A stretch of DNA of 64,000 nt from Porphyridium purpureum. Taxonomy: Eukaryota. Below, one piece after another: positions 6,304 to 52,538 of the stretch (position 1 is the stretch's first letter; each line of letters starts with the position of its first letter). The DNA lies in assembly GCA_008690995.1 (NCBI GenBank), contig VRMN01000014.1, forward strand, positions 124,001 to 188,000. Direction: 5' to 3'. Position numbers and translations under genes: made by a program. The notes beneath the pieces are model-generated. The model did no database searches. It worked only from the letters and a program-made list of their open reading frames with translations, and was not told the origin of the DNA.

Positions 6304-6307
6304 GGTT

Positions 6308-8367: not shown

Positions 8368-8380
8368 GGTTATGAGCCCA
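8368..8380 (+). promoter_or_regulatory. Primer-binding site complementary to the anticodon arm of initiator tRNA-Met (half-tRNA priming)
   Basis: GGTTATGAGCCCA directly after the LTR is the reverse complement of TGGGCTCATAACC; same type as Drosophila copia and Ty5. The outer copy has it at 6304-6314. Confidence 0.85.
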
Positions 8381-12649: not shown

Positions 12650-12688
12650 AGGTGGAAGGCATGACGAAAAGTTGTCGCTGCGTGGGAG

Positions 12689-13013: not shown

Positions 13014-13018
13014 ATGCG

Positions 13019-15561: not shown

Positions 15562-15600
15562 AGGTGGAAGGCATGACGAAAAGTTGTCGCTGCGTGGGAG

Positions 15601-15925: not shown

Positions 15926-16140
15926 ATGTTATCCCACTGAGCTGGTATAATTTTATGAATTATTTGGGCAGTTTGGTAGAATTAGCGATTCTATAGCAGC
16001 ACGCAGGTATCTTTGTCGAAGAAATCCTGTGTTGACGTAGAAGGAATTTAAAACAGTGCAGGCGTGATGCAGTGAATGGACAGGTTCTTTTGCCTGGTTT
16101 GGCGACATTTCATAATTTTTTTGGCCGCGTGGGAGTGTGT
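15926..16140 (+). pseudogene. Right half of the ancient copia relic (RNase H end and PPT-like GCGTGGGAGTGT)
   Basis: GCGTGGGAGTG at ~16126-16136 is the same PPT/LTR junction as in the young family; AT-rich like 4250-5995. Confidence 0.4.
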
Positions 16141-32713: not shown

Positions 32714-33760
32714 TGTCACGGGAGTAGCCCGTGTGTTAAGGAAATGATTAAAAAATAGCCATAGTCCGTGGCCGGATACCTGGTCGCGCCGGACCCACTG
32801 TACTGTAGGTGTACAAGGGGGCGCGTGGTAGGCCTGAAGGCCCCTTCCCTTAGGGACCAGACGCGCGATGACCACCCAGTATGGAATGGGTGTACAGCCA
32901 GGAGGTGGCTGGAACCTTCTGGGAGATTCTAGACTCAGCGACAGCAAGGCACTGTACCTCGGGGGTACAGTGGTCGCGATGGGTATAAAAAGACGCGCGG
33001 GTCGGCAACCAAGGGGGGGAGAGGGGGGTCGGGAGAGAGAAGGAGTAAGGTGGATCTAAGTAAAAACAGGTGTATTCAAGGGAGCGTGTTCGGGCCTTGG
33101 GTACCTGTTGAGGGAGCGGGGGTACAGCGGGAGTACAGCGGGGGTACGGCGGGGGTACGGCGGGAGTACAGCGCGAGCGAGCGAGCGGGGGGTTTAACGG
33201 GGAAGGTTCGCGGATGCCCTGGGGTAAGGCGTCATTAGACGGTCCTTGTTCGGAAGTGGATCCGGGGGTGGTACGTGGGCGGGGGCGGATAAAGGAGTGA
33301 TAGGCCGTTTGAAGCCGAAAGGTGAGGCAACCTCCTCCGGCTAACCCCGGCTGCCCACAACGCCTCCCCGGGTCCCGGATCACCGTAAGGTGTGGCCGAA
33401 CGGGATCCCGGTTGGGCAGCGGACGCCTGGTTCCCCCGTTACGCGCGTCTTCCGTGTGTGTGCTTTTGGTTGGCTGTGCCTGCTCCGTGCGTGTGCTCTT
33501 GGTTGGCTGTGTCTTTCCCGTGTGTCTGCTCTTGGTTGGTTCTGTCGGTCCCGTGTGTGGGTGCTCTTGGCTGTTTGCGTGTGAGCAGCGTGCGTGAGCG
33601 TCGTTGGTTCCGGGTTTCCTGCCTGCCGCAGGTCCAGTTGACTGCGGGTGTCTTGTGTTTCCTCTTGGTTGCGTGGATTGTCCAGCTTGTGTGCGTGCGT
33701 GTGCCGCTTGGCTTGCTGTTGGGTGTGCCGCGGTGTCCTGGGCCAGCACGGTTCGTGACA
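32714..33760 (+). repeat. Chromovirus 5' LTR (1047 bp)
   Basis: Direct repeat of 38894-39939 with about 8 substitutions and 1 indel counted by eye; TATAAAAA at ~32984. Confidence 0.96.
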
Positions 33761-33939
33761 TAATTTCCGGAAATTATCTTCCAGGATTGCGTGGCATCTG
33801 ACGTTGGTGCGAGAGAGGGTGGGGTGTGGACGTGAGATCGGTCTTGATCTTGGGCAAACTTGTGTCCACATTCTGATACGTACGGTCACCGAGTGAAGGA
33901 TTGCGAGAGAGGATTCGGAGCAGGAACGAAGTCGCAGAA

Positions 33940-34881
33940 ATGGTGCGTGGCAGGAAGACGACGATGGGCTCAGACGATGCGCGAGAGCACGCGTCCTCGA
34001 GCGAGCTGGAACGTGCACAGGCTGGCGCGCTGGCACCAGAGCCGACAATGCCCACGGCTCGTGGTGACGAGATAGGAAGTCATGGGGTTGTGAGTGTTCA
34101 GCAGAAGGAAGAGGGTGTCCCCGCCATTGTGCGCGGCAAGATTCGTTCTCAACTGGGCCAGGCTATTTGTGACGCGGGCGTGCAGATTGAGAAGGCCGGT
34201 GATCCACTTTTTCTGACCGCCAAGATGGTCTGGTTCAATCGCCTGCGTGACATGGGAGAGGATCCAGACCAACATGTATCCTCGATTGATGCAGTTTTCC
34301 GCGGGGTGGGGCTGAGGAAATGCTACGAGGTCCTGTCGGAGTTGCACGGTGCAACAGCACAAGAGGCATGGGCGGCTGTGGCTGCTTACTTCTACAACAA
34401 GGAGCACGAGCGCGCCCTTCGTGCAGAGCATCACGATGTTGAGTATGTTATTGGCCAGGACCTGAAGAAATTCGTGGAAGTTCTGGAGGATCGCTGCACG
34501 GCTCTGGGAGAATCTGACACTCGCAAGATTGAGGCACTTACGTTGGCGCTTCCGAAAAACTCCGAGCTGCGTCGTCAGGCCAGGACGTATGGCATACAGG
34601 GGAACTGGACCTTGATGAAGACTGCTCTGTTGGAGGAGGCTGGTCAGTATGGAACCTTTGGTGCGCTTGGCTCGCAGTACGGTGCAAGGGCAGTGAGGAA
34701 GCCCGAGCGCGTGCACCATTTGGGTAACTTTGATGAAGCTGGGCTCCCTGGGTTGAATCCTCGCAAGCGACTGGTCAAGTGCTGGGAGTGCCAGGAGCGG
34801 GGCCACGTTCGCATGGAGTGCCCAAAGTGGGAGAAAAATAAGAGGCAGAGGACCGAAGAACGCCAGACAAAAAACGAGTAG
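33940..34881 (+). CDS. gag: Chromovirus Gag with CCHC zinc knuckle
   Basis: CWECQERGHVRMEC; first in-frame ATG at 33940. Confidence 0.9.
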   Translation: MVRGRKTTMGSDDAREHASSSELERAQAGALAPEPTMPTARGDEIGSHGVVSVQQKEEGVPAIVRGKIRSQLGQAICDAGVQIEKAGDPLFLTAKMVWFNRLRDMGEDPDQHVSSIDAVFRGVGLRKCYEVLSELHGATAQEAWAAVAAYFYNKEHERALRAEHHDVEYVIGQDLKKFVEVLEDRCTALGESDTRKIEALTLALPKNSELRRQARTYGIQGNWTLMKTALLEEAGQYGTFGALGSQYGARAVRKPERVHHLGNFDEAGLPGLNPRKRLVKCWECQERGHVRMECPKWEKNKRQRTEERQTKNE

Positions 34882-34904
34882 CGGGGGGATGCGAAGGCCC
34901 CCCG
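34869..34904 (+). promoter_or_regulatory. -1 programmed ribosomal frameshift signal
   Basis: A_AAA_AAC slippery heptamer in the gag frame, a 6-nt spacer, then a CGGGGGG/CCCCCCG stem with a 9-nt loop; pol is in the -1 frame and open through the site. Confidence 0.88.
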
Positions 34905-37900
34905 GAATCTGAAGAATTGTCGGAGGCAGTCCCACTGGGCTCGTATCCGTGGATAGACGTACAGGCTGAATGGGGAGGTCTGAAGGTTCGGACTACTGCG
35001 CTGGTTGATACGGGGGCTTTATCCACGTGGATGAACGACGATTTGGCTGACCGTCTTGGGCTTCTTCGCAGAAAGACCCACACACAGGCATTGGGCCCAA
35101 CCAATGAGGTGTTGGGGGAGGCCGAGAAGAGCGTTGCCACAATTTGGGTTGGTGAGGGAATTCAGTCGGAGGAAAGCGTCCGGATTATGAGGAACCTCGG
35201 ACCTGATCTCATACTGGGAATGCGTTTTCTTGCCAAGCATGTCAGTTACTTGATCCCGGGAAGGGGTCTGGGCCTACGCTCGGGCGGATGGATTACTTTC
35301 GTCAACCGAGACGTTTCCAGTGCACAGGAAGCCGTGTGTCATACATGCCTGGAAAGACACAGGATCCTGGGATCGATGTATGAGGAAGCCAAACCCACGG
35401 TGCAGTTGGAGGCGGTGCACTATATTGCTGATGGAGCAGAAGTGAAGAAGCGAATCCAGGCCCTCGAAGAAAAGTATGCAGGTCACAACGAGGCTGTTTG
35501 TACTACCATTGAAGCCAAGATCTTTGAGCATTTGGATGAAGCGCAAAGCAGGGAGATGAAAGGGCTCTTGAAGAAGTTTTGGGTTCTCTTCCGGCCGGAG
35601 CTGGGTAAGACAGACCTCGTCGAGCATACGATTCGCATCAAGCCAGAGCGTTTGGAGGATCTCCCCAGGGCAAGGTTACGTCGCAGGGCTCCTGCGGTGA
35701 CGCAGGCTGAGCGCGAGATGGTGCAAGGGCTGGTCGCCCGAGGAGTGCTGGAGCCGAGTTTGTCAGATGTGTCGAGCCAGAATGTCATGGTCAAGAAGCC
35801 GAATGGCGGCTGGCGTCTGACGACAGACTTCCGAACGCTTAATGATGCGACTGTCAAAGATCGATATCCCATTCCGGACGTGGGAGAGATGATCGACTGG
35901 TTTGCATCGTGGAAGTTCAAGAGTATCCTGGATCTGAAGGATGGCTTCTTCCAGGTCCCTCTGGCCCCCGAGAGCCGACCATTGACAGCGATTATCACTC
36001 CGGACGGGCTGTTTCAATACTGCCGATTACCTCAGGGTTGCTGTAATAGCCCAAGTACCTTCCAGCGATTGACAAATACGGTCCTGGGCCCGCTCAGGTA
36101 CCTGAATGCATTGGTTTACATTGATGATTTGGCAATCGGGACAAAGACGTTTGAAGAGCACTTGCAAGCGCTGCAGCGGGTGCTGGAGCAATTCTGCGCT
36201 GCGGGCTTGGTGTTCTCATTGTCGAAGTGCAGATTTGGGGCTTTAAGGGTCGAGTTTCTTGGACATGATATCGGCCTGGACGGTATAAGGCCGAGCCAGA
36301 GGAAGACGGAGGCTGTGCGAGCATGGCAGGAGCCGAGGAATGCAAAGGAACTGCAGCAGTTCATTGGGCTCGTGGGGTGGTTCCGCAATTTTATCGAGGG
36401 ATTTGAGGAAGTCTGCAGACCTCTTAGGGATGCTATGAAGGGGCTTCAAATCAACGCCAAAGGAAGCAAGTGGAAAAAATACCCCATGAACTCGGCGGAT
36501 TGGCAGGCACGATTTGGTGAGCCTCAGCGTCAGGCATTTCTATCGCTGCGGGAAGCACTCAGTGATCCAGAAACTGGAGATCGAAAGGTTTTGGCTGCAT
36601 ACGACCCAGAAGCAGAGCATACGCTGTGGACAGACGCTTCTAGCACTGGCTTGGGAGCAATGTTGACGCAGAGGGAGGGTACTGGCGATCGTCCAGTGGC
36701 ATTTTACTCGAGGCTTCTGAGACCGGCCGAGCAGAACTATACCGTGACGGAGAAGGAGTGCTTGGCCGCCATTGCAGCCATGGAGCACTTCAGACATTAC
36801 TTGTACGGCAAACGATTCGTGCTCATGACTGACCACAGCGCATTGAGCTGGCTCATGAGGCAAAAGGAGCCTCAAGGTCGGATTGCGCGATGGATTCTCA
36901 AGGTACAGGACTTCGACTTCCAGGTTCAGCATCATCCAGGCAAGGCGAATACAGTGGCAGATGCGCTTTCGCGTCCAGCTGTACGTATGAATGGGGAAGA
37001 GGCTCGGGTGGCGAGCGAGAGCAATAAGTCTGAGACTCTCAACAACACGAGCGAAATCGAGCTCATTGGACTGAATGCTGTTGAGGATGAGGAAGTGAAG
37101 CGGGTAGTTCGGTTGGCTGAAATGCTGCAGGAAGAGATTCAGGGTCCAGCTTCGGGGGCCGATGGGGGTATGGTCCCTGTCACATCGGCCGGAGTGCGAG
37201 AGCTGCTGCTTCATACTGGCGAGCATACAGGAGCGAACGATGCGTACACACCACCTTCGACGGAAGAGATCGTGGCTGCATACGCAGACGACACGGACAT
37301 TCAGGAACAGTTGAAGAATCTGAAAGCAGACAAGCCCGAATACACGTACCCGGAGTACACCGTTGATGAGGATGGAGTCATCTGGGCTATGCTTCGCGAT
37401 GAGTCCAGGGTCGTGATACCAAACGCTCTGGTGCAGCGCGTCCTGCATGTGTATCACAGCACGCCACTTTCAGGGCACCTTGGAATAGAAAAGACTGCAA
37501 AGCGGGTCTCGGATGCACGATACTGGTGGACCGGTTGGACGGAAGATGTTCGTCAGTTTGTTCTTTGTTGCCATGAGTGCTTTTCAAGGAAAACAAAGGC
37601 GCCCCCGAGAAGGGCTCGCATGCAAGTCTATCGCGCGGTGAGACGTTTCGAGATTGTCTCGATAGATGTTCTGAGTATCACACCGACAACAACTCGCGGG
37701 CACAGCAAAGTGGTAATCATGGTGGACGCCTTCACAAAGTGGGTTCGTGCCCATGCAGTCAAGGATGAGACTGCGGCTACACTGGCACGTGTTTTACTAG
37801 ACGGTTGGGTGTGCGATTTTGGACCGCCAGAATCTCTGCTGTCCGACCGGGGACCGGGCTTTGTAGCCGACATCCTTTCAAAAATGTGTGAAAATCTGGG

Positions 37901-38654
37901 TGTAGGACGTATGCTTACGACAGCATACCATCCGCAGACGAACGGGGTTGTGGAGCGCTTTAACCAGACAGTGTGTCAAATGTTGTCGGCATACGTGTGT
38001 GCGAACGGAAAAGACTGGGATCGCTGGTTGCCGGTAATGGTGTATGCGTATAATACAGCCCGGCATGCATCCACGAAGATGTCTCCGTTTGAACTGTTGT
38101 ATGGTGAGCCGGCACGGGACTGGGCAAGTATGGCGGGACCCAGAGCTGTTGAACAAGCAGATGACCTCGCGAAGAAGCTTGCTGCATGTCACGCCATTGC
38201 CAATAAGAATGCGAAGATCGCACAGGATCGGTACACGAAGAACTATGATCGCCGAGTCAGGGAACATGACTTCAAGCCGGGCGACGTGGTGTACGTTTGG
38301 GCGCCGCCTTCAGGAGAAGGGCGCAAGCTGAAAAAGCCGTGGGTAGGACCACTATCCATCCTGAGAATGGTCGGGGTTCATGCAGTACTGTGCAGTGAAG
38401 GCCATCCTGACGGGAAGTTGGTCCACGTGAACCGGCTTGCTCGGGCCCACAAGGACCTCATTGAGGCAAGTGGATCCCAAGTCTTGCAAGGAGAAGACGG
38501 CAGCTGGGCTATAGAGGCTATAGCCGGGGATCGGGTTGTGGGCGGACGCCGAGAGTACAGAGTTAGATGGCGAGGACTCGGTAAACGTGGGGATACGTGG
38601 GAACCTGAGCTCGCATTGCCACCAATGATGGTGGCTGCCTACCGTGACGCGTGA
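34869..38654 (+). CDS. pol: Chromovirus Pol (protease, RT, RNase H, integrase, chromodomain), expressed by -1 frameshift
   Basis: ALVDTGA, LDLKDGFFQ, YIDD, WTDAS, YH..GH.G/CHEC, SDRG, YHPQTNGVVER, and C-terminal WAIEAI..EYRVRWRG...DTWEPE chromodomain. Confidence 0.96.
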   Translation, partial: KKRVAGGCEGPPESEELSEAVPLGSYPWIDVQAEWGGLKVRTTALVDTGALSTWMNDDLADRLGLLRRKTHTQALGPTNEVLGEAEKSVATIWVGEGIQSEESVRIMRNLGPDLILGMRFLAKHVSYLIPGRGLGLRSGGWITFVNRDVSSAQEAVCHTCLERHRILGSMYEEAKPTVQLEAVHYIADGAEVKKRIQALEEKYAGHNEAVCTTIEAKIFEHLDEAQSREMKGLLKKFWVLFRPELGKTDLVEHTIRIKPERLEDLPRARLRRRAPAVTQAEREMVQGLVARGVLEPSLSDVSSQNVMVKKPNGGWRLTTDFRTLNDATVKDRYPIPDVGEMIDWFASWKFKSILDLKDGFFQVPLAPESRPLTAIITPDGLFQYCRLPQGCCNSPSTFQRLTNTVLGPLRYLNALVYIDDLAIGTKTFEEHLQALQRVLEQFCAAGLVFSLSKCRFGALRVEFLGHDIGLDGIRPSQRKTEAVRAWQEPRNAKELQQFIGLVGWFRNFIEGFEEVCRPLRDAMKGLQINAKGSKWKKYPMNSADWQARFGEPQRQAFLSLREALSDPETGDRKVLAAYDPEAEHTLWTDASSTGLGAMLTQREGTGDRPVAFYSRLLRPAEQNYTVTEKECLAAIAAMEHFRHYLYGKRFVLMTDHSALSWLMRQKEPQGRIARWILKVQDFDFQVQHHPGKANTVADALSRPAVRMNGEEARVASESNKSETLNNTSEIELIGLNAVEDEEVKRVVRLAEMLQEEIQGPASGADGGMVPVTSAGVRELLLHTGEHTGANDAYTPPSTEEIVAAYADDTDIQEQLKNLKADKPEYTYPEYTVDEDGVIWAMLRDESRVVIPNALVQRVLHVYHSTPLSGHLGIEKTAKRVSDARYWWTGWTEDVRQFVLCCHECFSRKTKAPPRRARMQVYRAVRRFEIVSIDVLSITPTTTRGHSKVVIMVDAFTKWVRAHAVKDETAATLARVLLDGWVCDFGPPESLLSDRGPGFVADILSKMCENLGVGRMLTTAYHPQTNGVVERFNQTVCQMLSAYVCANGKDWDRWLPVMVYAYNTARHASTKMSPFELLYGEPARDWASMAGPRAVEQADDLAKKLAACHAIANKNAKIAQDRYTKNYDRRVREHDFKPGDVVYVWAPPSGEGRKLKKPWVGPLSILRMVGVHAVLCSEGHPDGKLVHVNRLARAHKDLIEASGSQVLQGEDGSWAIEAIAGDRVVGGRREYRVRWRGLGKRGDTWEPELALPPMMVAAYRDA

Positions 38655-38873
38655 CCAGTGGCGGAACCTCGGACACACCGGCCGGGTGGAGGGCCACGTG
38701 GACGGACGTCCTCTTCGAGTACTTACGTTGCCAAGACGGGCACACGAAGCCGATGGCCAGTGCACGGGCGACATCGAGCTTGAGACGTGGATGCCGGACG
38801 CGTCAAGCATTGGCATGTGCTGTAAGTATGAAGTGACTCTCCGGAAGCTTCGGACCATGTGATACCTGACATT

Positions 38874-38893
38874 GGGAAGCGGAGAGGGTGGGA
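38874..38893 (+). promoter_or_regulatory. Polypurine tract
   Basis: GGGAAGCGGAGAGGGTGGGA immediately before the 3' LTR. Confidence 0.85.
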
Positions 38894-39939
38894 TGTCACG
38901 GGAGTAGCCCGTGTGTTAAGGAAATGATTAAAAATAGCCATAGTCCGTGGCCGGATACCTGGTCGCGCCGGACCCACTGTACTGTAGGTGTACAAGGGGG
39001 CGCGTGGTAGGCCTGAAGGCCCCTTCCCTTAGGGACCAGACGCGCGATGACCACCCAGTATGGAATGGGTGTACAGCCAGGAGGTGGCTGGAACCTTCTG
39101 GAAGGTTCTAGACTCAGCGACAGCAAGGCACTGTACCTCGGGGGTACAGTGGTCGCGATGGGTATAAAAAGACGCGCGGGTCGGCAACCAAGGGGGGGAG
39201 AGGGGGGTCGGGAGACAGAAGGAGTAAGGTGGATCTAAGTAAAAACAGGTGTATTCAAGGAAGCGTGTTCGGGCCTTGGGTACCTGTTGAGGGAGCGGGG
39301 GTACAGCGGGAGTACAGCGGGGGTACGGCGGGGGTACGGCGGGAGTACAGCGCGAGCGAGCGAGCGGGGGGTTTAACGGGGAAGGTTCGCGGATGCCCTG
39401 GGGTAAGGCGTCATTAGACGGTCCTTGTTCGGAAGCGGATCCGGGGGTGGTACGTGGGCGGGGGCGGATAAAGGAGTGATAGGCCGTTTGAAGCCGAAAG
39501 GTGAGGTAACCTCCTCCGGCTAACCCCGGCTGCCCACAACGCCTCCCCGGGTCCCGGATCACCGTAAGGTGTGGCCGAACGGGATCCCGGTTGGGCAGCG
39601 GACGCCTGGTTCCCCCGTTACGCGCGTCTTCCGTGTGTGTGCTTTTGGTTGGCTGTGCCTGCTCCGTGCGTGTGCTCTTGGTTGGCTGTGTCTTTCCCGT
39701 GTGTCTGCTCTTGGTTGGTTCTGTCGGTCCCGTGTGTGGGTGCTCTTGGCTGTTTGCGTGTGAGCAGCGTGCGTGAGCATCGTTGGTTCCGGGTTTCCTG
39801 CCTGCCGCAGGTCCAGTTGACTGCGGGTGTCTTGTGTTTCCTCTTGGTTGCGTGGATTGTCCAGCTTGTGTGCGTGCGTGTGCCGCTTGGCTTGCTGTTG
39901 GGTGTGCCGCTGTGTCCTGGGCCAGCACGGTTCGTGACA
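38894..39939 (+). repeat. Chromovirus 3' LTR (1046 bp)
   Basis: Direct repeat of the 5' LTR. Confidence 0.96.
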
Positions 39940-41788
39940 AGTGGAAGGAAAAGCCCGAGTTCGCGGAACTACGAGGCTAGATTTTAGCCTCCTGTTCTTG
40001 GTAAACTGAATTCCTTTATTCCTTGCTGACAAACGGTGGGTAAGGAAGCCGTAAAACTCATTGCGGAGTGCATTTTGCTACTCCTGCTTTAGAAGCGCCC
40101 TAGCGCTTTCCCGTTTATTCTGATAAAAGCTGGCTAATACTGTTGAGGCTTCCGTCACGACTGAGATGTTCGTCAAAGTTAAACAAACAGTTTATACTCG
40201 TCAGTGCAAAGTTACGCTTTTCACTCCCTAAATCCGTAGCCCTTCTTTTTTGTCACGCCGCCGCCGGGTCGCTCACCAGACCACGCTTTTACACCCAGAA
40301 AGCCGCAAACTCGTCGTTACTGAAATCCCTGGTCGGGCACAGGAGCGCCTACCGCCGAAAGACACGTGCATCGGCACCAACATCTAGAGTATTCTAAGTG
40401 GTGCCATGACTTGTCGGCTCAGCCTGAAACCCAGAACAAATACACGAGCAAAAGCGCGCGACCGCTCGCCTCCGCACGACTGTTGTGCGGGTCGCAAGTG
40501 CGACAATCATGGACACGTCTCCAAAATACAAACACAGAATAGCACTCTTCCGAAACATTGAGCCGCACGCCTGCCCAGTATAGTGCGCGCGTCGGCGGGC
40601 CTGTGTAGTGTTGTTGAGCCTGTGCGTTTGACAAAATCGGATAGTCCTACCGATCAGTCATACTGGAAAATGCATCTGGAGATTAGAATCAGTGCAAACA
40701 GATTGCATAACTTTTCCGACACCGCGAGACCCTACTTGACAAGGTGATCATTCGGGACAGAATACCGGTGTCATGCGCAAGAACCTAAAAATCGAACAGA
40801 CGCATGGGACTGACAGCATGATCAAAAGCGTGAATTCACAAATCAGATTTTAATACAGAAGTTCGACCTCAAAAATGGCCTCTGAAGCTGAACACGAAAG
40901 TAGAAATGAGCGTGCGAGACGGTGAGGGCAGTATACTTTTGAATCGTAACTTGGTCAGAGGTAAAATCGAACATGCGTAAACGAAGCGACTGTATACTGT
41001 CAACTTCGACAGACAACGCGCTCATGTGAAAAGGCAAGACACGGCTGCCTCACGAGCAGGACCTCGAATCACAGCCAAATTTCACGTCATACTTGTGTAA
41101 AGTTAATTCGTTGTTAGAAATGGTCGCAACAGGTTTTTCGTTTGTTGCAGGGCAGCTTGAGATGTGGTGCAAAAGAGGGTGATCGTACGCGGCCCGTCGT
41201 GGACAAGCGGAAAGCCGTGTAGTTCGACAGGGCGTACGCCTCCGCGGACGGGGCCGCCACCGGAATCGAAGGGGTGCGGTGGAAGGGTTAGCGCGGCGAA
41301 GAATTCGGGTAAGGTTTTTTTTCCCTGATGGGTCTTTTAGCGCGACGACTGGCCCATAAAATGCCGCAAAGTTCTGCTGGGATCGATGTACTGAGAGACT
41401 GAAACCGCATGGATTTTTGGCAACGAAACTGGTGTTCGTAACTTTTTGGATTCATCCGCTCGGGCAGAGGTAGCTGGAGAGCGTATGTTGCTGGGAATGG
41501 AGGAAGGACCAATGGGATAGAGTATTTACGGAAAGATACGTTCGTGCGAGACTGGGACTGCTTACGGGGCGTTGCTGTTTGTCCTCTCTTGCGGGGCCGC
41601 AGCACCTCCAACATATGTGGTGCGCGCACGGCCATCGCGTCCTGCTCGGCGCCGAAGCTCCGTGCGCCAGTGAACTGTACCTCTCAACTCACCTGCTTTG
41701 CGTGCACTGTACCTCCGGATGGGCTGGACGCGCGCTTGGCGCGAGCGCGTGTGGCCGTGCGCGCACCACAGGCAGGTGCGTTGACGGC

Positions 41789-43143
41789 ATGGCGCAGCCG
41801 ACGCGCTGCGCGATAAGCTCGCTGCGCGCTCGGCAGTGGTGGGCGTCCTCGGCCTCGGGTATGTGGGGCTGCCGCTGTGCGCGTGCGTCCACCGCGCCGG
41901 GTTTCGCGTGCTGGGATTCGACATCGACCGGGACAAGATCGACAAGCTCCAGCGCGCCCATTCGTACATTGTGTACATTCCGCAGGATACCTGGGACAAG
42001 CTCAGCCAGTCCGCGCAATTCGAGCCCACAGATGACTTTGAGCGCCTGCGCGAGGTGGACGTGTTCGTGATCTGCCTGCCCACGCCCGTGGGGCCGCACA
42101 ACGAGCCCGACCTGCAGTACGTGTTCGGGGCCGTCCAGACCATCGCAGCCAAAATGAAACCAGGATCGCTCGTCATTCTGGAGTCCACGACGTACCCGGG
42201 CACGACTGACACAGATGTGGTCGCACTGCTGCGCGACAATGTCGGTGCGGCCTGGTTGACGGAGCGCACTGCGCCCGTGCTTGGCGAGAACTTCTTCGTC
42301 GCATTTTCACCCGAGCGCGAAGATCCGGCTAACCAGATGTTTGCATACGAGACGATTCCAAAGCTCGTTGGTGGCGTGTGTGCCACGTCTGGTGCCTTGG
42401 CAGCTGAATTCTACAAGCAGGCCGGATTTGCGACCCCAGTGCTTGTCGAGTCGGCGCGTGTGGCGGAATGCGCCAAGCTGGTTGAGAATATTTATCGGTC
42501 GGTGAACATTGCTCTCGTGAACGAGCTCAAAGTCGTATTTGAGGCTATGGATGTGAACATCTGGAGCGTACTGGACGCGGCTCAGACCAAACCATTCGGA
42601 TTTCATCGCTTCAATCCGGGGCCTGGCGTCGGAGGGCACTGCATTGGTGTTGACCCATTCTACTTGTCGTGGAAGGCAAAGGAGTTTGGTCAAAACTGCG
42701 ACTTTGTGCAGCTCGCGGCACGCGTTAACGCGTCCATGCCGGACTTTGTGGTGGGGCGCGTGGCAGCAGCTCTCAACGAATTGGGACGCGCGCTGAATGG
42801 CAGCCGCGTTCTGCTGATTGGCGTTGCGTTTAAAGCAGATGTTGACGATATGCGAGGGTCGCCATCGCTTGAGGTTTGGGAGAGATTGCGAAAGGGAGGT
42901 GCGCTTGTCAGTTACTATGATCCCATGATTTCAGTGATCCCTCCGACGAGGGAGCACCGCTTACTCATGGGACAAGAGAGCGTGACATGGAACCGAGAGT
43001 CGATTGATGGACACGATTGTTTGGTCTTGTTGACGAATCACTCGCAAATCGATTACTCCATCTTGAAGTCCTATTCTGGGGTTGTGGTTGACACAAGAAA
43101 TGCGGTGCCCAAAGACTTGGATATCCGCGTTGTGCAGGCTTGA
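41789..43143 (+). CDS. UDP-N-acetyl-hexosamine 6-dehydrogenase, bacterial WbpA/WecC type (ATG at 41789 is one base out of frame)
   Basis: VGVLGLGYVGLP, ICLPTP, LESTTYPGTT, FSPEREDP, AKLVENIYRSVNIALVNE, PGPGVGGHCIGVDP, GVAFKADVDDMRGSP, VDTRN. Confidence 0.92.
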
Positions 43144-43475: not shown

Positions 43476-44379
43476 TCACGCGGTGTGATTGAGACCGTTT
43501 ACACATGCCACAATCTCCTGCACGTCGGCCATGGCGCCCACTCCGATGTCCCCGCAGATGAGTGTCTTGCTGACAGGAGGTACGACACGCACGTTGTGTC
43601 GGCTGGACACCTGCTGCATCTGTGCGCGCGTGATATCACTTTCCCACATGTACGTGTTCATGGCCGGCGCCAGGACCAGCCAGCAGTGATTGTAGTCCCA
43701 CGCGCGTGCGACGTTGGTGAGCAGGTTATCGCACAAGCCAATTGTGATTTTCGCGAGCGTGTTTGCACTGAGCGGGGCCAGGACAAGAACGTCAGCCCAC
43801 TTGCGCAGCTCGATGTGGAGCACTGGGTCGCCGCGTTTTTGCCATGTGGTCCTTCACGAAAGAGCAGCATCACACCACGCATAAAATTCGGTTTGTCAGT
43901 CTCAAAGCTTGTACGCAAGAACCAAAGCAGTCATGAAACCACGCCGTTGGACACCAGAAGCCGAGCGCCTAGCCGCATGAAAGTCTACGATTCTGCGCCA
44001 CAGTGACGTACCATTCATCAGCATCGCGCCAGACGCGCACATTGAGCGGAACCTTGGCCTCGCATTCGAGAAACTTGTCTGCACTTTCCGTCACAATAAT
44101 CTGCACCTGCACGCGCCCAAAGTGATCCGAACAACAGCGAAAGCAGAAACCGCACCGCCGAGCACACAATCCTCACGAATCAGCGACTGTGCGCGAACAA
44201 AGAACCACCCGCGTACACGCACGCACGCGAGCACGCCGGAGCCGCATTCATGCCGCCGCGCGCAGAGCGGCGCGAATTCGCGCGCAACGTACCTCGTGGT
44301 CTGCGCGCACCAAGAAGTCCGCGAGCTGCGGCACCTTGAGCGCGGCAACCGAGCCGCTGGCCGCTAGCAGCACGCGCAT
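43476..44379 (-). CDS. PPCDC: Phosphopantothenoylcysteine decarboxylase (HAL3-like); exons 44379-44293, 44106-44012, 43851-43476
   Basis: MRVLLAASGSVAALK..|..WRDADEW|TTWQKRGDPVLHIELRKWAD..APLSANTLAK..GLCDNLLT..PAMNTYMW..KTLICGDIGVGAM; GTACG donors and AG acceptors splice in frame. Confidence 0.93.
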
Positions 44380-44512
44380 CGCAGAGAGTGCGTGATCGCG
44401 CCTCGGTCACTGCTGGGCCGACCCGTCCAGCGGCAAACAATTTTAGCCGCGCGTCTCGCAGCGCTGTGTCGAAGGGCGAAGCGACGCGGCGGGCAGCGTG
44501 CGCATTAGGAGA

Positions 44513-45081
44513 ATGGCGCTTTCGGAGCCGGCGCGCGACGCGAGCGCCGTGGGAGCGGGCCCGATCCTCCCGCTGGAGATGATCGACCGGTGCATTGGCT
44601 CGCGCATCTGGATCGTCATGCGCGGCGAGCGCGAGTTTGTCGGTACGCTGCGCGGGTTCGACGACTTTGTCAACGTCGTGCTCGAGGATGTGACCGAGTA
44701 TGAGGAGACGTCGGACGGTCTCCAAGTTCGAAAACTCGATCAGGTACGTGACGTCTTTTGCGCTCCCCTGTGGAAGTCGGCAGTTTTGTGAACGCGCGTG
44801 CCCAGGCTCGGCACGTCGTCTCGAAGTCTCAAACTGCGCGAAAGCTTTGTTTAGATCCATCCAGAACCATCTTCTGACCCAACGCATCTATTGTGCGTGT
44901 GTGCTGCGTTTGTCTGCGCTTGTGCGCGCTGTGTCTCTTGCTTTGGCTTTATCCGCTTCTATGCCACACGTGTACGCTTGTTGTTGTCGCCCCCTTCTTT
45001 GTGCAGATCATGCTCAATGGCATCCACATCTGCATGATGGTGCCGGGCTCCGAGGGCCCGGATCACAGCATTCCTTCGTGA
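44513..45081 (+). CDS. LSM5: U6 snRNA-associated Sm-like protein LSm5; exons 44513-44743 and 45007-45081
   Basis: [47 protein letters not shown]...[18 protein letters not shown]. Confidence 0.95.
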
Positions 45082-45246
45082 CCACGTTCGGCACGAGGAA
45101 CTCCGCGCGGCGGCTCGTGTCTACCAGACCAAGTGCGCTCTTTTCGTGTGTCAATAAAACCATCTGATGCTACTCGCGAAACGTGCGCCGTCGCCGTCGT
45201 CTCGCACGAAATCGCGGCGGGACCGTAGCCCCGAGCAAGACGCAGA

Positions 45247-46647
45247 ATGCGGGTAACGCGGGCATGTGCGAGCCTGCTGCGTCTCGCACAGTCGCTGCGC
45301 GCTTCGGACTTTGCATACGAGCTGCCGGAAGCGCGGATAGCGCAGCGGCCACTCTCGAAGCGCGCAGAGAGCAAGCTGCTTGTGTGGAAAAAGCCGTCGG
45401 CGCACATTCAGCACGAGCGCTTCGACGCGATTACACGGCTGGCTCCAGAGAGATGTGTGCTGGTGCTCAACGAGACCAAGGTGGTTCGTGCGCGGCTGCA
45501 GCTTCGCAAGTACCCGTACGGCGGCAAGGCGGAAGTGATGTTGCTGCGGCCTCACGAGCCGCAATGCACCATTGCCGAGGCACTCGACGCGACAAGGCGA
45601 GCGCAATGGACATGCCTGATCAATGGCCACAATATCGGCAAAGGTGCCAGATTGCTCGGCGAGATCCTTAACTGGGGCCTGCCGCCACGTCCCTTGCGGC
45701 TTTGGGCATCGGTGGTCGAGAAGGGCTACCCGAGCGTCGTGCAATTCCACTGGGAGCCCAATAAGCTGCGGTTCCAGGAATTTGTCGAGTTCTTCGGGGC
45801 CATGCCCCTGCCAATGTACATGAAGCGCGACGCTGACCCAAGCGACACATCCGCGTACCAAACCGTGTACGGGAACACACCCGGTTCGGTGGCGGCGCCG
45901 ACTGCAGGACTTCATTTTGACAAGTCGCTGCTCGAGCGCATTGAAAAGGAAAGAGGTGCAAGCATCGTGCGCGTGTGTCTCCACGTGGGCGCAGGCACGT
46001 TTCTGCCGGTAAAGGCGGACACGCTAGGGGGCCACCGCATGCACGAGGAAGAGCTGCATGTGACGCGAGGCGCCATCGACACGTTTCTGGACGCCAAGGT
46101 CAACAAGCGGCCCGTGCTGGCAGTCGGCACGACCGCCGTTAGGACCTTAGAATCATTGTACTGGTTTGGAGTGCGACTCCTCTGCGAACCGGACCTTGTT
46201 TTTCTCAAGGACCAAATGCTCGTCTCGCAGTGGGACCCGTATCGCCTAGTCGACCAGGACTTTGATTCGGATCAAAGCAAAGTTCCCAAAGCTGAGGAGG
46301 CTCTACGCGCCGTGGCGAGCTACATGGATAAGATGAACCTCTCGGCTCTAAGTGGAGAAACGCAACTGCTGATTGCGCCGCCGTACGCATTCCAAATGGT
46401 GGACTGCATGATCACGAACTTTCACGAACCCAAATCGACGCTGCTGCTGCTCGTTGCAGCGTTTACCGAGTCGCCGGAGAACTGGTTGCCGAGCAAAGTT
46501 CTAGCCGACGGTCACGGCAGCGAGCTCACGGGTGCTGCCGGGCTGACGCAGAACTTACGCGGAATCTACGACGCCGCGCTGAACAACGGATACCGATTCC
46601 TTTCGTACGGCGACACCTCATTTTTGACGCAGGACGCCTTCCCGTAG
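45247..46647 (+). CDS. queA: S-adenosylmethionine:tRNA ribosyltransferase-isomerase (QueA)
   Basis: DFAYELPEARIAQRP, LVLNETKVVRARL, GAMPLPMYMKR, YQTVY..PGSVAAPTAGLHF, LHVGAGTFLPV, HRMHEE, AVGTTAVRTLES, ITNFHEPKSTLLLLVAAF, YRFLSYGD. Confidence 0.95.
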   Translation: MRVTRACASLLRLAQSLRASDFAYELPEARIAQRPLSKRAESKLLVWKKPSAHIQHERFDAITRLAPERCVLVLNETKVVRARLQLRKYPYGGKAEVMLLRPHEPQCTIAEALDATRRAQWTCLINGHNIGKGARLLGEILNWGLPPRPLRLWASVVEKGYPSVVQFHWEPNKLRFQEFVEFFGAMPLPMYMKRDADPSDTSAYQTVYGNTPGSVAAPTAGLHFDKSLLERIEKERGASIVRVCLHVGAGTFLPVKADTLGGHRMHEEELHVTRGAIDTFLDAKVNKRPVLAVGTTAVRTLESLYWFGVRLLCEPDLVFLKDQMLVSQWDPYRLVDQDFDSDQSKVPKAEEALRAVASYMDKMNLSALSGETQLLIAPPYAFQMVDCMITNFHEPKSTLLLLVAAFTESPENWLPSKVLADGHGSELTGAAGLTQNLRGIYDAALNNGYRFLSYGDTSFLTQDAFP

Positions 46648-46906
46648 CGCGCGTAATAATCCAGCGAGCACACAGGCGCCGCGATCCAATAAACTTCAAC
46701 GAGGCCGCCGGCACGTGTCGGTCGCGCCCGCGCAGCTGCTCCGCGAAGCCGGAAAAGGTGTCGCATGTTCTGAGCCGATCAACCGACGCAGCTGCTCGCT
46801 TGTGGATATCGAAGAGCGCAACTGGTGCTCGCAGGAAGCAGGAGCGACAGCGTGTGTGCTCTTCCGCGTCCGGCTCGGTGGATCATCTGTGGCAGCGCTG
46901 TGCAGC

Positions 46907-49900
46907 ATGCGGAATGCGGCGCGCGGCCGGGCGCTCGCGGCGCGGGCCCTGCTCTGGGTGGCCGGGGTCTTGGCGCTCGCGATCCTGGCGTTCAACCCGC
47001 CGCGCGAATGTGACGGTGCGACGTGGAATAAGCTCAAGACTTGTGCGCAGAGTGGTTTCTGCTCGCGGCACCGCGGCCTGCCTCCGCGGCCTCATAATCA
47101 GGTCACGTACGCGGTGCGTCCAGAGTCCGTGCATGTCGGCTCGTCTCCGAACGATGACGGCGCCGTGAGCGGCTTGGTTTCGATCTCGACGGTCGATTCC
47201 GGATCCGAGGCCGAGTCGATGAGCGTCGATCTCGCCTTTCAGATCCGGGCGTACGACAATGGCGTGATGCGGTGGACGCTCGACGAGCAGCCAGGCAACG
47301 GGAGGTTCGAGCGATATCGGCCGACAGACGGAGTTCTCGTGGATTCTCTGAGAGCCGTACGCATCACCGAGGACACAGATCTCGACCGTTCCAGCCCCTT
47401 AAGGCTTCGTGTGCGGTGCTCGGCGTGTAAAGCAGGACTGACTGATCCGCCTGTCCTCGTGATTGACTACAACCCTCTGCGTGTCACTCTCGAGTCCGCG
47501 CGCGGCGCACCGCTCGTGATACTCAATGGGCACGAGCTCTTGCGCTTTGAAAGGCAAGACGAGGATATCATAGAACCGCCAGAGTCTCAGCAGCACGAGG
47601 AAGCACCAACACATCAAGCGAATTCGGAGCACAGTCCGGAGGTTGGCGGCGACCACGAAGGCGCTTCTCATGTCGCAGATGGCACTGACCATTCGGACGA
47701 ATACATGGCGGGTTACTACGATGATGTTGCAGGCAATGAGAATGATTTTGGCCTCGATGCCTACACTGCTCCGTATGAAGATTACAATTATGGTCTAGAC
47801 GATATGCATGCAGTGCCGTACGGTGAGGATGCCGTGCCAGACGACATTGCTCTCCGTGAATTCGAGGCGCCCGTTGCACCGCATGGCAGTGAAACGGCAC
47901 ATGCGTGTCGCGGGTGCTTCCAGGAGACCTTTGACGGCCATACTGACGTCAAAGCCCGCGGACCGGAGTCCATTGGTGTCGATATTGAGTTTCCGAGGGC
48001 ATCCCATGTTTTCGGAATTCCTGAGCGAACCAGTTCCTTTGCCCTGCAAGACACCAAGCGCGACGGCTTGGCTCAGTCAGGAGAATCTTTATCGGACCCA
48101 TACCGCATGTACAATTTGGACGTTTTCGAATATGAGCTGAACTCGCCATTCGGCTTGTACGGGTCAGTCCCCCTGCTGATGGCGGTTACAGACGGTGGAC
48201 ACTGGTCGGGCGTCTTTTGGCTTAATCCATCTGAGACTTACGTCGATGTTACGGGCGCAAATGGAACGGCAAGCGGCGGCCACAATGGGAGCAATACTAG
48301 TATCACTACACACTGGTTCTCGGAAAGTGGCGTTATGGACGTGTTTCTTCTCGGCGGCGGGGACATGCCCTGCATTGTTTACAACCAGTACGTCTCCCTG
48401 ACGGGTCCGGCAGCCGTGCCGAATACATTTGCACTAGGTTTCCACCAGTCCCGCTGGAAAGCCGACTTTGAAGCAGACACCCGTGCTGTGGACCGCTCGT
48501 TCGACACGCACGATGTCCCGTACGACGTTTTGTGGTTGGACATTGAGCACACGGACGGCAAGCGCTACTTCACATGGGACTTGAACAAGTACCCGAATCC
48601 TGTGCAGCTTCAGCACGATATCGACGCGCGAGGGCGCAAAATGGTGACCATCATCGATCCGCACGTGAAGCGTGACGGCAATTACGCCCTGCATCGCTTT
48701 GCCGAGGAAAACGGACTGTATGTCAAGGAAGCGGACGGGACAACGGATTATGTTGGCTTTTGCTGGCCGGGCTCCAGCAGCTACTTTGACTTTGTCAATC
48801 CAGCTGTGCGAGCGGCCTGGGCAAGTCGCTTTAGTCCCGAGTTTTACAAGGAACTCACGCCAAGTTTGTACACTTGGGTTGACATGAATGAACCATCGGT
48901 GTTCAATGGACCTGAGCAAACCATGCCAAAAGGACTAAAGCACTTTGGCGGCTGGGAGCATCGAGATGTGCACAATTTGTATGGACTCTTCGTGCAGCGA
49001 GCCACGTTCGAAGGCCTGCTGCAGGCGCGCAATTCGACAGACCGGCCCTTTGTGCTGTCGAGGGCGTTCTTTGCCGGTAGCCAGCGCTTCGGTGCTGTGT
49101 GGACGGGAGATAATGCTGCGTCTTGGGGACACCTTCAAGCGTCGATTCCCATGCTGCTAAGTCTCCAGATCAGCGGTATTGTGTTCTCAGGAGCGGATAT
49201 TGGCGGCTTTTTCGGCAACCCAACGCGGCCTCTCGCAGTTCGATGGTATCAGGCCGCCGCATTCCAGCCCTTTTTCCGGGCTCACAAACACATCGACGCG
49301 GATCCGAGAGAACCGTGGCTCCTAGGCAACGACAACATGCAGCACATTCGCAAAGCAATTTCGGAAAGATACACCTTTCTGCCGTATTGGTACACGCTTT
49401 TCGCCGTGGCGAGCACGGTGCTCGATGCAAGTGACGCGCGAGCGGCATCTAAAGATGGGATGCACCATCCGCCAATGCGTCCGATCTGGTGGCATTTCCC
49501 GAGTGAGCGTGCTCTGTTGGGTGGGAAAGAACAGGAACATTCTTGGATGGTGGGAGACGCGCTGCTTGTTGCTCCGGTTTTGAGCGAGAACACAGAGGCG
49601 CACCGCGTCCGCCTGCCTGGAGGTGGTGGCGGGGACGTTAGCAAAAATGCGCCGAAAAGCGCGAATTCGAACAGCGGCGCTACTGCCTCGCGCTGGTTTG
49701 ATCTGTACGGCGACTACGCCGAGCTTTCAGGTGGTGAGACTCACATTTATAATGAAGTCAGCCTGGATCGTATGTTTGTATTTCAACGGGGAGGGACCAT
49801 CGTTCCACGCAAAATGCGTCGCCGCCGATCAACAGTCGCAATGAACCTTGACCCGCTCACGCTGGTTGTCGCACTTGACAGCTTCGAAACGGCGCATGGT

Positions 49901-50269
49901 ACGCTGTATGTAGATGACGGCAAGTCATTTGCATACGAAGAGGGCAATTTTGTCGTTCGCTCATTTGAATTTAGCTCGAATCGTTTGACGGCTAGGACAG
50001 TCGCAGGCTCTGAAGAATGGCTCGACGACCAAAGAACCGAGCGAAGCCGCATTCTTTGCGAAAAGATTCTTGTGCTCGGTCTTGCAGTGGAGCCAAGCAC
50101 CATACTAGCCGAGACGATCCACAGAAATGCAGACGGGTCGTACGTCCCGAAGACCGTGGAGCTTGAACGAGACATCAACTTTAACTTTTACGCGCAGAGC
50201 AGAAAGCTCGTGGTGAGACGCCTTCCGTTTCGCGCGTACAGTGGGGACTGGACGCTCCATCTGATGTAA
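46907..50269 (+). CDS. GANAB: ER glucosidase II alpha subunit (GH31)
   Basis: Hydrophobic signal/anchor, LKTCAQSGFCSRHR, PYRMYNLDVFEY, WLDIEHTDGKRYFTWD, WVDMNEPSVF, WTGDN, QPFFRAH. Confidence 0.95.
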   Translation: MRNAARGRALAARALLWVAGVLALAILAFNPPRECDGATWNKLKTCAQSGFCSRHRGLPPRPHNQVTYAVRPESVHVGSSPNDDGAVSGLVSISTVDSGSEAESMSVDLAFQIRAYDNGVMRWTLDEQPGNGRFERYRPTDGVLVDSLRAVRITEDTDLDRSSPLRLRVRCSACKAGLTDPPVLVIDYNPLRVTLESARGAPLVILNGHELLRFERQDEDIIEPPESQQHEEAPTHQANSEHSPEVGGDHEGASHVADGTDHSDEYMAGYYDDVAGNENDFGLDAYTAPYEDYNYGLDDMHAVPYGEDAVPDDIALREFEAPVAPHGSETAHACRGCFQETFDGHTDVKARGPESIGVDIEFPRASHVFGIPERTSSFALQDTKRDGLAQSGESLSDPYRMYNLDVFEYELNSPFGLYGSVPLLMAVTDGGHWSGVFWLNPSETYVDVTGANGTASGGHNGSNTSITTHWFSESGVMDVFLLGGGDMPCIVYNQYVSLTGPAAVPNTFALGFHQSRWKADFEADTRAVDRSFDTHDVPYDVLWLDIEHTDGKRYFTWDLNKYPNPVQLQHDIDARGRKMVTIIDPHVKRDGNYALHRFAEENGLYVKEADGTTDYVGFCWPGSSSYFDFVNPAVRAAWASRFSPEFYKELTPSLYTWVDMNEPSVFNGPEQTMPKGLKHFGGWEHRDVHNLYGLFVQRATFEGLLQARNSTDRPFVLSRAFFAGSQRFGAVWTGDNAASWGHLQASIPMLLSLQISGIVFSGADIGGFFGNPTRPLAVRWYQAAAFQPFFRAHKHIDADPREPWLLGNDNMQHIRKAISERYTFLPYWYTLFAVASTVLDASDARAASKDGMHHPPMRPIWWHFPSERALLGGKEQEHSWMVGDALLVAPVLSENTEAHRVRLPGGGGGDVSKNAPKSANSNSGATASRWFDLYGDYAELSGGETHIYNEVSLDRMFVFQRGGTIVPRKMRRRRSTVAMNLDPLTLVVALDSFETAHGTLYVDDGKSFAYEEGNFVVRSFEFSSNRLTARTVAGSEEWLDDQRTERSRILCEKILVLGLAVEPSTILAETIHRNADGSYVPKTVELERDINFNFYAQSRKLVVRRLPFRAYSGDWTLHLM

Positions 50270-50348
50270 ATTCACGCTCACTGTCACAGCTGACGGCTCA
50301 ACATCCGCCGACCAACACTTTCGAAAAGACAGATTCTAATTTCAAAGT

Positions 50349-51518
50349 TTACTGGCTCGTTTGATCTTGGCCTTGATCAGTGCTTATGGCAGATGCCGCG
50401 TCCTGCGCGGGCCTACTCTCATGAGCATCGGTGGCACCACCATCCAGCATGGACGCTGGTCCAGTAGTGGCTGAACCTCCACCCTGCCGCAAAGCATCGA
50501 TCTTCTCCGTAGCGGCCATCCACATTTGGCGTGATCGCTCGTTCACATCACGAATCAGCGACGCGATGGCTTCGTTGCTCAACGCACCATCTGCTGCAGA
50601 CTGGATGCGCTGCCTCAGGTGATAATTTTCGTCAAGCTCGTGAACGCGCTCTGCGCTGCTCCGGGCGATGGCATTTGAAGCATCCGAGATGTGCAGTCGC
50701 CGGTCAATGTTCACGGCCATTTCATTCATCTTTGCGACTGACTCCTTCAGTTTCTTGTCCAGCTCGATCCGCTCCATGCCCTGGGCGATCTGCTCAGTTC
50801 CTGCCTGGGCGCTGGCCTCAATATTTCTGCCAAACTCACTGCCCTTGGTCTGCGCGTACTGAAGTCCCTCTTTGAACAGCTGCTCATACTCTCCGCGCTT
50901 GTAAGCGTCCATCTCCTCAGCGGCGATCTGCTTGGCCGAAGTCAACCACGAGGATACGGTTGATCCCCACGAGTTCATGAATCCGAGGTCAGCGGATGCG
51001 CCGCCTGCAGCGGCCTGGCTTGCCGCAGCTGCGTCGTCGCCGCGCGCTGCTGCAACATCGCTTTGGGTTCCCGACGGGGCCGCTGCCCTTGTATCGGGCG
51101 TTTGATTGGCAGAGGTTGCGTCTGCAGGTTTCTCAGACATTCCACCAGTGGGTCCCTGCGTGGGTGGTGCCGCGTCCGCTCCGTCGGCATTCCAGTTCTC
51201 CGGCGCGGTCTCGATGCAGACGTCGCGATCGAGAATAGCAGAGCCGTTCAGCAGGACGGCGGTCTGCTGCGCGGCGTCGTTCTCGAAAAGAACAATAGCC
51301 TCGAGCAGCGGGTGGCCCTCCTCGTCGACCTGTGCGGGCGCGCGCGCCTTGCGCAGCCGGATCGCGCTGATCTTGCCGCAGAACGAGAAGAACGCGTCCA
51401 CGTCGTGCTTGGTGCACATGGGCGACAAGTTTGTGGCCCGCACTGCGCGCGCCGCCTGGCCTGGCGGAGGAAACGGGCCCGTGTCTGTGTCCAAAGCGTC
51501 CGCGTCGTACCCCTCCAT
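50349..51518 (-). CDS. RRM-containing protein (BPA1/Vip1-like)
   Basis: VRATNLSP...DVDAFFSFCGKISAIRL...AIVLFENDAAQQTAVLLNGSAILDRDVCI followed by a helical IDRRLHISD/LDENYHL region; the ATG at 51518 is preferred over the upstream GTG. Confidence 0.75.
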   Translation of the reverse strand: MEGYDADALDTDTGPFPPPGQAARAVRATNLSPMCTKHDVDAFFSFCGKISAIRLRKARAPAQVDEEGHPLLEAIVLFENDAAQQTAVLLNGSAILDRDVCIETAPENWNADGADAAPPTQGPTGGMSEKPADATSANQTPDTRAAAPSGTQSDVAAARGDDAAAASQAAAGGASADLGFMNSWGSTVSSWLTSAKQIAAEEMDAYKRGEYEQLFKEGLQYAQTKGSEFGRNIEASAQAGTEQIAQGMERIELDKKLKESVAKMNEMAVNIDRRLHISDASNAIARSSAERVHELDENYHLRQRIQSAADGALSNEAIASLIRDVNERSRQMWMAATEKIDALRQGGGSATTGPASMLDGGATDAHESRPAQDAASAISTDQGQDQTSQ

Positions 51519-52538
51519 TCTGCCGTCCCGCGCGTCCGTTCCCGCGACACCCGCTTCTGCTCTGCTGCTATCTCCCACGAGCCTTCACCAGCCGGAAGCT
51601 TTTCCGTCCCGGTTTCGTAACCGATTCGAAAGGCGGAACCGTTAAACCGAGAACCGTTAAACCGAGAACAGAAACGGGAGGCCGGGGGGCGATCCGGCGC
51701 CGTCACACGAACGGAAGCGCGGAGCAGCGAGAGCGCAGCGGTTGGAAAGGAGCGAAGGACGGGAAGTTCTTTTCGCCGGGGGCTTCCGAGAAGGAATGAA
51801 CTGGCCTTGGTACAAATAAAGTAATAGAAGGTCTTTCCGTACACCAGCTGGCTTCGAAACAACATTCTAGACCGATATCCGCTGACATGACACGCCAACG
51901 TGCCGTCCCTCGCAAATCTGATGTCAGTCTTCCGACGAGCGCCACGTTCGAGCCAATTCGAGTCTCCTTTCGACCTTTTCGCCTTTTACTACCCTTCATC
52001 CTAGTCACTGTCCGGTCGCCACCAGCGGACAAATGTTTCAAAACGACAAGTTTTCACGTCAGGTTTCGACCCGCTACACAGTTCACGACCACAGCCAGCC
52101 ACGGGTCCGACAAATGGCTGAGATGGCGTTAGAAGAGCAGAATCAGGAGACGCCTTTGCGAGCGGCTTCGGACCTTCACACAAAGTCATGCAAAACCAGC
52201 CAAAACCAGAAACTCAAATGTCAATCATGTCAGACGTCATCATACTGACGAGCTAATCGTCGTGGGGCTGTCTAGGGTGTTTTCACGCAAACCAGACGGC
52301 AAGTCCAAGAGACGAACCTTCAACTTTCTCGATTTTACCATTGGAGATGCCTTGCTTACCTGGAAACTTCCTGGCGACCGAAGATCACTTTGTAGCGAGT
52401 CAAGTGAACGGTTTATCCGCCAAGCCCGCGGCTACCTAGTCCTGACTGGAACCTGGCTGGAACTTGGAGAGTAAACACGCGACGGCAGTCCATGTGAATG
52501 CGTAAGCACCGGCGAGCAGGCTCGGGGCGCGAAGAGAA

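Follow-up and report, generated by a model that had tools for sequence, protein, structure and literature searches.

We identified an intact nuclear queA-family gene in a 64,000-nucleotide stretch of Porphyridium purpureum DNA (hereafter the window; Table 1), and its product groups not with canonical QueA but with a long paralog of the family that was seen mainly in Bacteroidota. Our preferred reading, to which we assign a probability of about 0.55, is that this weakly transcribed gene encodes a likely mitochondrial enzyme of the long subtype that would likely perform QueA chemistry on preQ1-tRNA, as suggested by sequence comparisons, a predicted model, and analogy with other algae. The idea that queuosine is finished in algal mitochondria is already known, having been published in 2025 as a prediction for Chloropicon and some red algae (PMC12301720; cited here, as are the other papers, from its accessible parts), so that the novelty claimed for the pathway in the initial annotation has largely lapsed. 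The point that we did not find in print is the apparent tie of the algal QueA to a second QueA paralog of Bacteroidota. The accessible text of PMC12301720 mentions neither Bacteroidota (0 matches for 'bacteroid') nor a paralog, while its QueA tree (Fig. S5f) may already contain the red algal protein and its bacterial neighbors.

Table 1. Features of the 64,000-nucleotide window (positions count from its first letter).
Feature	Position	Strand	Remarks
Copia-type retrotransposon tandem copies	5996-15932		repeats 98.6-100% identical; one 1425-aa ORF, two partial
DEAD-box helicase with MrfA-type zinc domain	26310-29744	-	presumably Hrq1/MrfA type
Chromodomain-bearing gypsy-type LTR retrotransposon	32714-39939		full-length; LTRs of ~1047 bp
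Nucleotide-sugar dehydrogenase	41785-43143	+	TIGR03026, 370 bits
Phosphopantothenoylcysteine decarboxylase-like gene	43476-44400 (ends approximate)	-	two spliced introns; divergent from LSM5
LSM5-type gene	44513-45081	+	two exons; 263-nt GT..AG intron, 44744-45006
queA-family ORF, long (Bacteroidota-type) paralog	45247-46647	+	466 aa; no visible intron
Basic acid-free leader	45247-45306	+	putative mitochondrial presequence of 20 residues; net charge +4; hydrophobic moment 0.80
Subfamily insert	46156-46344 (approx.)	+	~residues 304-366, LYWFG...QWDPY...; exceeds its E. coli QueA counterpart by ~50 residues
Second insert	46471-46548 (approx.)	+	~25 residues; precedes the C-terminal helix
ER glucosidase II alpha subunit (GH31)	46907-50269	+	red algal homologs in tree

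The queA-family gene translates as a single open frame without a stop, and its ATG is the first start, because an in-frame stop lies directly before 45229. With a PF02547 match of 307.6 bits (cut-off 25), the frame is indeed full-length and uninterrupted, as had been annotated. The protein scored 319.8 of the required 324 and 263.7 of the required 267.45 against the NCBIfam QueA equivalogs TIGR00113 and NF001140, narrowly below both cut-offs, and it falls outside the 18 short QueAs in our tree. We therefore do not file it as a canonical QueA, although some long members, such as those of Galdieria (363/324) and L091 (377/324), exceed the equivalog score. Its only solved relatives by sequence were three QueA structures (1vky, 1wdi, and 1yy3). 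An AlphaFold (AF2) model from a nine-row alignment (pLDDT 82, pTM 0.85) gave four Foldseek matches at E ≤ 0.001, all of them QueA structures, with E values of 3e-24 to 8.5e-22 to 1vky, 1wdi, and 1yy3 and TM scores by target of 0.60-0.68. The predicted protein thus comprises an alpha/beta domain with an inserted beta-barrel, as in the solved QueA structures; that fold was described in 2005, when QueA was called bacterial only (PMC1282579).

The claim that all hallmark motifs are present needs qualification. The motifs YQT, AAPTAGLH, LHVGxGTF, HxMHxE, GTTxxRxxE, TNFHxP, and YRFxSYGD are kept, as are 72 of the 87 columns whose conservation reaches 90% or more across 36 canonical QueAs from outside Bacteroidota (from a 77-row set), but the protein departs from canonical QueA in PLPPY (here PLPMY) and NFHLP (here NFHEP), besides missing both equivalog cut-offs. 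Among the polar conserved columns, D54, T204, and R249 differ, and the Porphyridium protein alone has P151 replaced by Met among the 11 tree rows that we treated as eukaryotic. Compared with canonical QueA (EC 2.4.99.17; E. coli b0405; PDB 1vky, 1wdi, and 1yy3), it shares the fold and 33% identity with the E. coli enzyme, but it carries two inserts (~50 and ~25 residues) and 16 extra N-terminal residues, belongs to a separate clade, and is not encoded beside tgt. Moreover, no tgt, queG, or yhhQ was found among the 34 of 47 window ORFs that were scanned.

The first insert contains the E[ST]xYWxG and QWxxY motifs (residues 302-334) by which we recognize the long paralog, and it is modelled as three helices. 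While the initial annotation was right that this ESLYW.G...QW.PY insert is present, the insert is no algal oddity and instead marks a bacterial paralog subfamily. The second insert is modelled with low confidence (pLDDT below 50 at residues 419-431), and the best-matching protein, P0123, and the Chloropicon QueA have shorter inserts at this site.

Intergenic distances are 165 bp on the LSM5 side (measured from its stop) and 259 bp on the side of glucosidase II (measured to its ATG), in agreement with the approximate distances noted earlier. The LSM5 intron is spliced GT..AG in all three raw RNA runs, with exon 2 in frame from 45007, and poly(A) reads at 45172 indicate that the LSM5 transcript stops before queA. 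On the other side, a 25-row tree groups the glucosidase with those of Gracilaria, Agarophyton, Rhodosorus, and Galdieria (SH-aLRT 100), which identifies the host as a red alga. The eukaryotic setting is thereby confirmed.

We considered whether the gene could reflect bacterial contamination or a chimeric assembly, which we regard as very improbable. What gave this explanation some footing was that no named eukaryote appeared among the best 120 matches of a word-based search, and that two of the four DNA-type runs compared as contigs, X3 and X4, may have supplied the window sequence itself. Against it, single contigs bridge queA to its neighbors at 43515-49906 in run X3 and at 45004-52000 in runs X4 and X19, so that the junctions from LSM5 through queA to glucosidase II are spanned in all three (from 45004 in X4 and X19). 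Run X19, which is not marked as a possible source, represents a strain with 58 differences from the window in 6980 bases; among the listed differences within the queA ORF, four of five are synonymous. DNA depth over the locus is even in X3. Furthermore, the GC3 of queA (0.72) lies within the range of seven host genes (0.62-0.78), and its codon use correlates with theirs (r = 0.61-0.79) as against 0.09 with the copia ORF. The closest bacterial matches are only 43-48% identical, and relatives occur in four named algae. The artefact reading is thus already largely refuted. A separate observation, which could also be counted on its side but was left out of the evidence, concerns run X6, whose assembly is interrupted within queA. 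There, a side contig (depth 12.8) exits queA at 45493 and resumes at 40453 in minus-strand orientation, the two ends sharing a few nucleotides of microhomology, and depth drops from 33.8 to 21.4 over 45464-46950; this junction is either a variant of inversion type carried by a fraction of the sample or a chimera formed during amplification.

Expression was examined in 20-25% of the reads of three raw RNA runs (X22, X23, and X24). Sense RNA covered queA in 15 of 15 bins in X23 (depth 0.8-8.4), 13 of 15 in X24, and 3 of 15 in X22; RNA depth was 1-8 over queA versus 16-50 over LSM5, and antisense reads in X24 reached a depth of 2.8 over the gene. No splice joint was seen inside queA in the three runs. 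An upstream exon that would lengthen the leader was also considered, but the RNA reads, of depth below 1 in that stretch, showed no such joint. The gene is thus transcribed weakly and unevenly on its own strand.

To place the protein among its relatives, we used a HMMER scan of 1.84 billion representative proteins, with 20 matches looked up for names. Named algal homologs were found in Galdieria partita, Cyanidioschyzon merolae, Chloropicon primus, and Nannochloropsis oceanica. Since green and eustigmatophyte algae, as well as other red algae, share the gene, it is not an acquisition particular to Porphyridium. Six further proteins (P0123, P0144, P0308, P0302, P0270, and P0239) were treated as eukaryotic on the basis of their leaders or their likeness to named algal proteins. 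The best match, P0123, is 46% identical and has the leader end and the C-terminal insert in common with the red algal protein, and all algal relatives contain the ~50-residue insert after GTTxxRxxE. The Nannochloropsis oceanica proteins (P0271 and P0272) are long-type QueAs from a eustigmatophyte, a lineage absent from the accessible parts of PMC12301720.

A quick tree of 83 rows separates the 65 long proteins from the 18 short ones (SH-aLRT 100), and the algal proteins fall with the long paralog rather than with canonical QueA. The short rows include four named alphaproteobacterial records, cyanobacterial and chlamydial QueAs being absent from this tree, and the rows of both this and a more careful 42-row tree were hand-picked from a 501-row FastTree. 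Because the long clade is separate from the short QueAs, the alphaproteobacterial ones included, descent from a canonical proteobacterial QueA is unlikely. In the 42-row tree, the red algal protein, which has a long end branch, pairs with P0123 (99/94), and this pair joins P0308, P0144, and the Chloropicon QueA (84/85), while Cyanidioschyzon and two other rows are placed elsewhere. Across 200 bootstrap trees, the 11 rows treated as eukaryotic came together as a clade in 0%, but a single clade was not rejected in an AU test (p = 0.278). The signal within the long clade is thus weak and compatible with either one old transfer or several. The phylogeny proposed in the initial annotation does separate long from short QueAs, but these trees resolve neither the donor nor the number of transfers. 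Membership in the long clade points to an old transfer from the long paralog as the probable origin of the algal gene.

The bacterial best matches carry the same insert and belong to Bacteroidota wherever named. The long Bacteroidota-type paralog is a class defined in the present analysis; we found no curated model for it, and its RefSeq product name is generic only. To survey its distribution, we used genome sets that were sampled phyla of one Bacteroidetes (201 genomes), one Pseudomonadota (301), and one Phycisphaerae record (61). The long paralog was present in 40 of the 201 Bacteroidota genomes (E ≤ 1.6e-57; next best 2.1e-45), in none of the 301 sampled proteobacterial genomes (best 1.2e-43), and in none of the 61 sampled planctomycete genomes, where a single candidate proved to be a short QueA. 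A pattern scan of GTDB gave mostly short QueAs, with one long form among 80 loci, and a metagenome scan with P0123 returned only three bacterial-looking long forms, the contig of P0123 not being among them. Thirty long-form loci that we fetched encode proteins of 392-541 aa, of which 25 have a strict E[ST]xYWxG motif. Relative to the Bacteroidota long paralog (e.g., WP_010182051.1 of Parabacteroides distasonis and WP_055278651.1 of Bacteroides finegoldii), the red algal protein likewise carries the ESLYW.G insert and ends in YRFLSYGD, is 36-48% identical, and falls into the same clade (SH-aLRT 100); it differs in its nuclear gene, its acid-free leader, and its second insert. It has no close bacterial sister, the best in GTDB genomes being 45% identical over the matched stretch.

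All 40 long-form Bacteroidota genomes have a second QueA-family match (35 by scan and five by Pfam search), the second locus was directly seen in 34 of them, and both forms occur in named Parabacteroides, Bacteroides, and Phocaeicola records. The long form therefore need not do the canonical job, and since canonical QueA co-occurs with it, its QueA activity cannot simply be assumed. The two forms have diverged in different ways. The long-paralog consensus keeps 78 of the 87 conserved columns and the Bacteroidota short consensus 75; the long form has lost the conserved D54 and has NFHQP in place of NFHLP, whereas the short form has H226 replaced by Asp and P151 mostly by Lys (E. coli numbering), both of which the long form keeps. 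Because these two residues are kept in the long form and lost from the short one, intact chemistry in the long form is favored. In the short Bacteroidota QueA, HKMDSE replaces the HxMHxE motif that is invariant elsewhere (L007, L067, L086, L122, L123, and the 77-row set). Either form may do the main work in these Bacteroidota. No Q-pathway gene occurred among 55 ORFs flanking bacterial long forms at 31 loci. As for domain fusions, EPSP synthase was fused to the long QueA in 8 of 17 proteins scanned; this divergent EPSP synthase fusion recurs in eight 50%-identity clusters (P0150, P0153, P0163, P0169, P0195, P0202, P0234, and P0249), and single fusions to EamA (P0184), NUDIX (P0244), and HPPK (P0218) were also seen. 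Our literature search, which included PMC6593275 (in part) and had most subscription journals outside it, found no study of the long paralog and no activity assay for any long-subtype protein.

At its N terminus, the red algal protein has a leader (MRVTRACASLLRLAQSLRAS) with four Arg and no Asp or Glu, which agrees with the acid-free extension described in the initial annotation. Similar leaders precede the QueAs of Chloropicon (net +4, no acidic residues, moment 0.83) and Galdieria (+3, none, 0.71), and four related proteins (P0001, P0123, P0144, and P0308) have acid-free basic leaders as well. By comparison, among 55 bacterial long forms in which 15-60 residues precede the first motif, only P0091 has an acid-free leader with a net charge of at least +3. 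These features suggest that mitochondrial import via the short basic leader is likely. However, the leader extends only 16 residues past the E. coli QueA start, and its residues 10-16 are modelled as an ordered helix (pLDDT 89 for residues 11-20). Residues 11-20 almost match those of P0123, with which the leader end AQSLRAS is shared, and an ordered second half would be as compatible with a helix of the mature domain as with a presequence that is cleaved off. The earlier suggestion of an organelle-targeted enzyme completing queuosine from preQ1 thus holds in that the leader fits import and the role is plausible, while the shortness of the leader counts against it.

The same chemistry might instead take place elsewhere, if the leader were part of the fold or if targeting were plastidial or dual, with plastid or cytosolic tRNAs as substrate; we consider this unlikely, though it is the strongest of the alternatives. 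The short leader and its ordered, P0123-conserved second half would fit such a location, as would the similar segment in the bacterial P0091 and the acidic leader of the Nannochloropsis QueA, which is not mitochondrial-like. The acid-free basic leaders of P0001, P0123, P0144, and P0308, so rare in bacterial long forms, argue the other way. An early Phe is typical of red algal plastid transit peptides, and it is missing here. Furthermore, mitochondria are predicted for Chloropicon and Galdieria (PMC12301720).

According to our preferred reading, an intact gene is transcribed on its own strand; its product, which retains both the fold and the conserved core of QueA as judged by profile, alignment, and predicted structure, would be imported into mitochondria through its short basic leader. 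There, a chlamydial-type BL-TGT would place salvaged preQ1 at position 34 of GUN-anticodon tRNAs, as proposed for Chloropicon; the red algal QueA would use SAM to add the epoxycyclopentanediol ring to the tRNA preQ1, giving epoxyqueuosine; and QueG, again by analogy with Chloropicon, would reduce epoxyqueuosine to Q. The gene itself would derive from an old transfer of the long paralog, chiefly of Bacteroidota, and not from a canonical proteobacterial QueA. The reaction of QueA and the dependence of QueG on B12 have been described (PMC5699537), and a chlamydial-type TGT that is putatively mitochondrial has been described in red algae (PMC2376095). In Chloropicon, BL-TGT, QueA, QueG, and YhhQ were reported with a software-predicted mitochondrial location; red algae are named there as the closest relatives, and some of them, in particular Galdieria sulphuraria, are said to possess all three enzymes (PMC12301720). 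The algal Q pathway is a prediction in that paper, whose accessible text contains no bench test. Both Porphyridium and Chloropicon have a nuclear QueA with a basic leader, and the C. primus QueA (QDZ25469.1) has the same insert at 34% identity; the leader is 20 aa in the red alga versus 52, and no yhhQ was seen beside the red algal gene. Compared with eukaryotic queuine salvage (QTRT1/QTRT2, QNG1), the end product would be the same, namely Q34 in GUN-anticodon tRNAs, but salvage uses the finished base queuine and has no need of the QueA step (PMC5699537).

Alternatively, the long paralog may catalyze SAM-dependent ribosyl transfer on another substrate or in another role (a tRNA subset, another RNA, or a free deazaguanine), for which algae kept it; the algal QueA would then stem from a second Bacteroidota paralog with a different job, and the mitochondrial pathway would be misassigned. 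This we judge quite unlikely. It would account for the separate clade, the fixed ~50-residue insert beside GTTxxRxxE, the altered D54 and NFHQP, the presence of a short QueA in the same genomes, the lack of Q-gene neighbors at the loci surveyed, and the generic RefSeq name. It sits poorly with the canonical core being better preserved in the long form than in its short Bacteroidota counterpart (H226 and P151 above all), with the equivalog cut-offs being exceeded by Galdieria and L091, and with the occurrence of the long form together with BL-TGT and QueG in Chloropicon and its linkage to yhhQ in C. primus (PMC12301720). If true, algae would have kept an unrecognized SAM-ribosyl-transfer reaction acquired early from bacteria. 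The gene might also be a dispensable, decaying relic, given that BL-TGTs may accept queuine and so bypass QueA, whereupon QueA and QueG could disappear (PMC12301720). While the low and uneven expression, the PLPMY and NFHEP departures, and the long end branch would fit decay, the full-length frame with its core motifs kept and the mostly synonymous strain differences among those listed render it improbable.

The window contains further features of note (Table 1). The nearest named models to the nucleotide-sugar dehydrogenase are WecC and TviB, below whose cut-offs it scores; no ATG precedes its GxGxxG motif, so that an upstream exon is likely, and it is possibly a second bacterial-type gene. 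The gypsy-type element was recently inserted, as its LTRs are 99.1% identical.

Should our preferred reading of a mitochondrial long-subtype QueA be correct, some algae would complete queuosine on organellar tRNA from preQ1, beyond queuine salvage alone, and their mitochondrial translation would be linked with a precursor of bacterial origin and also, by way of QueG, with vitamin B12. Such a pathway would be a mosaic of donors, because the QueA appears to be a Bacteroidota-type long paralog and the TGT is reportedly chlamydial. The same long paralog is the second queA of many Bacteroidota, among them gut Bacteroides.
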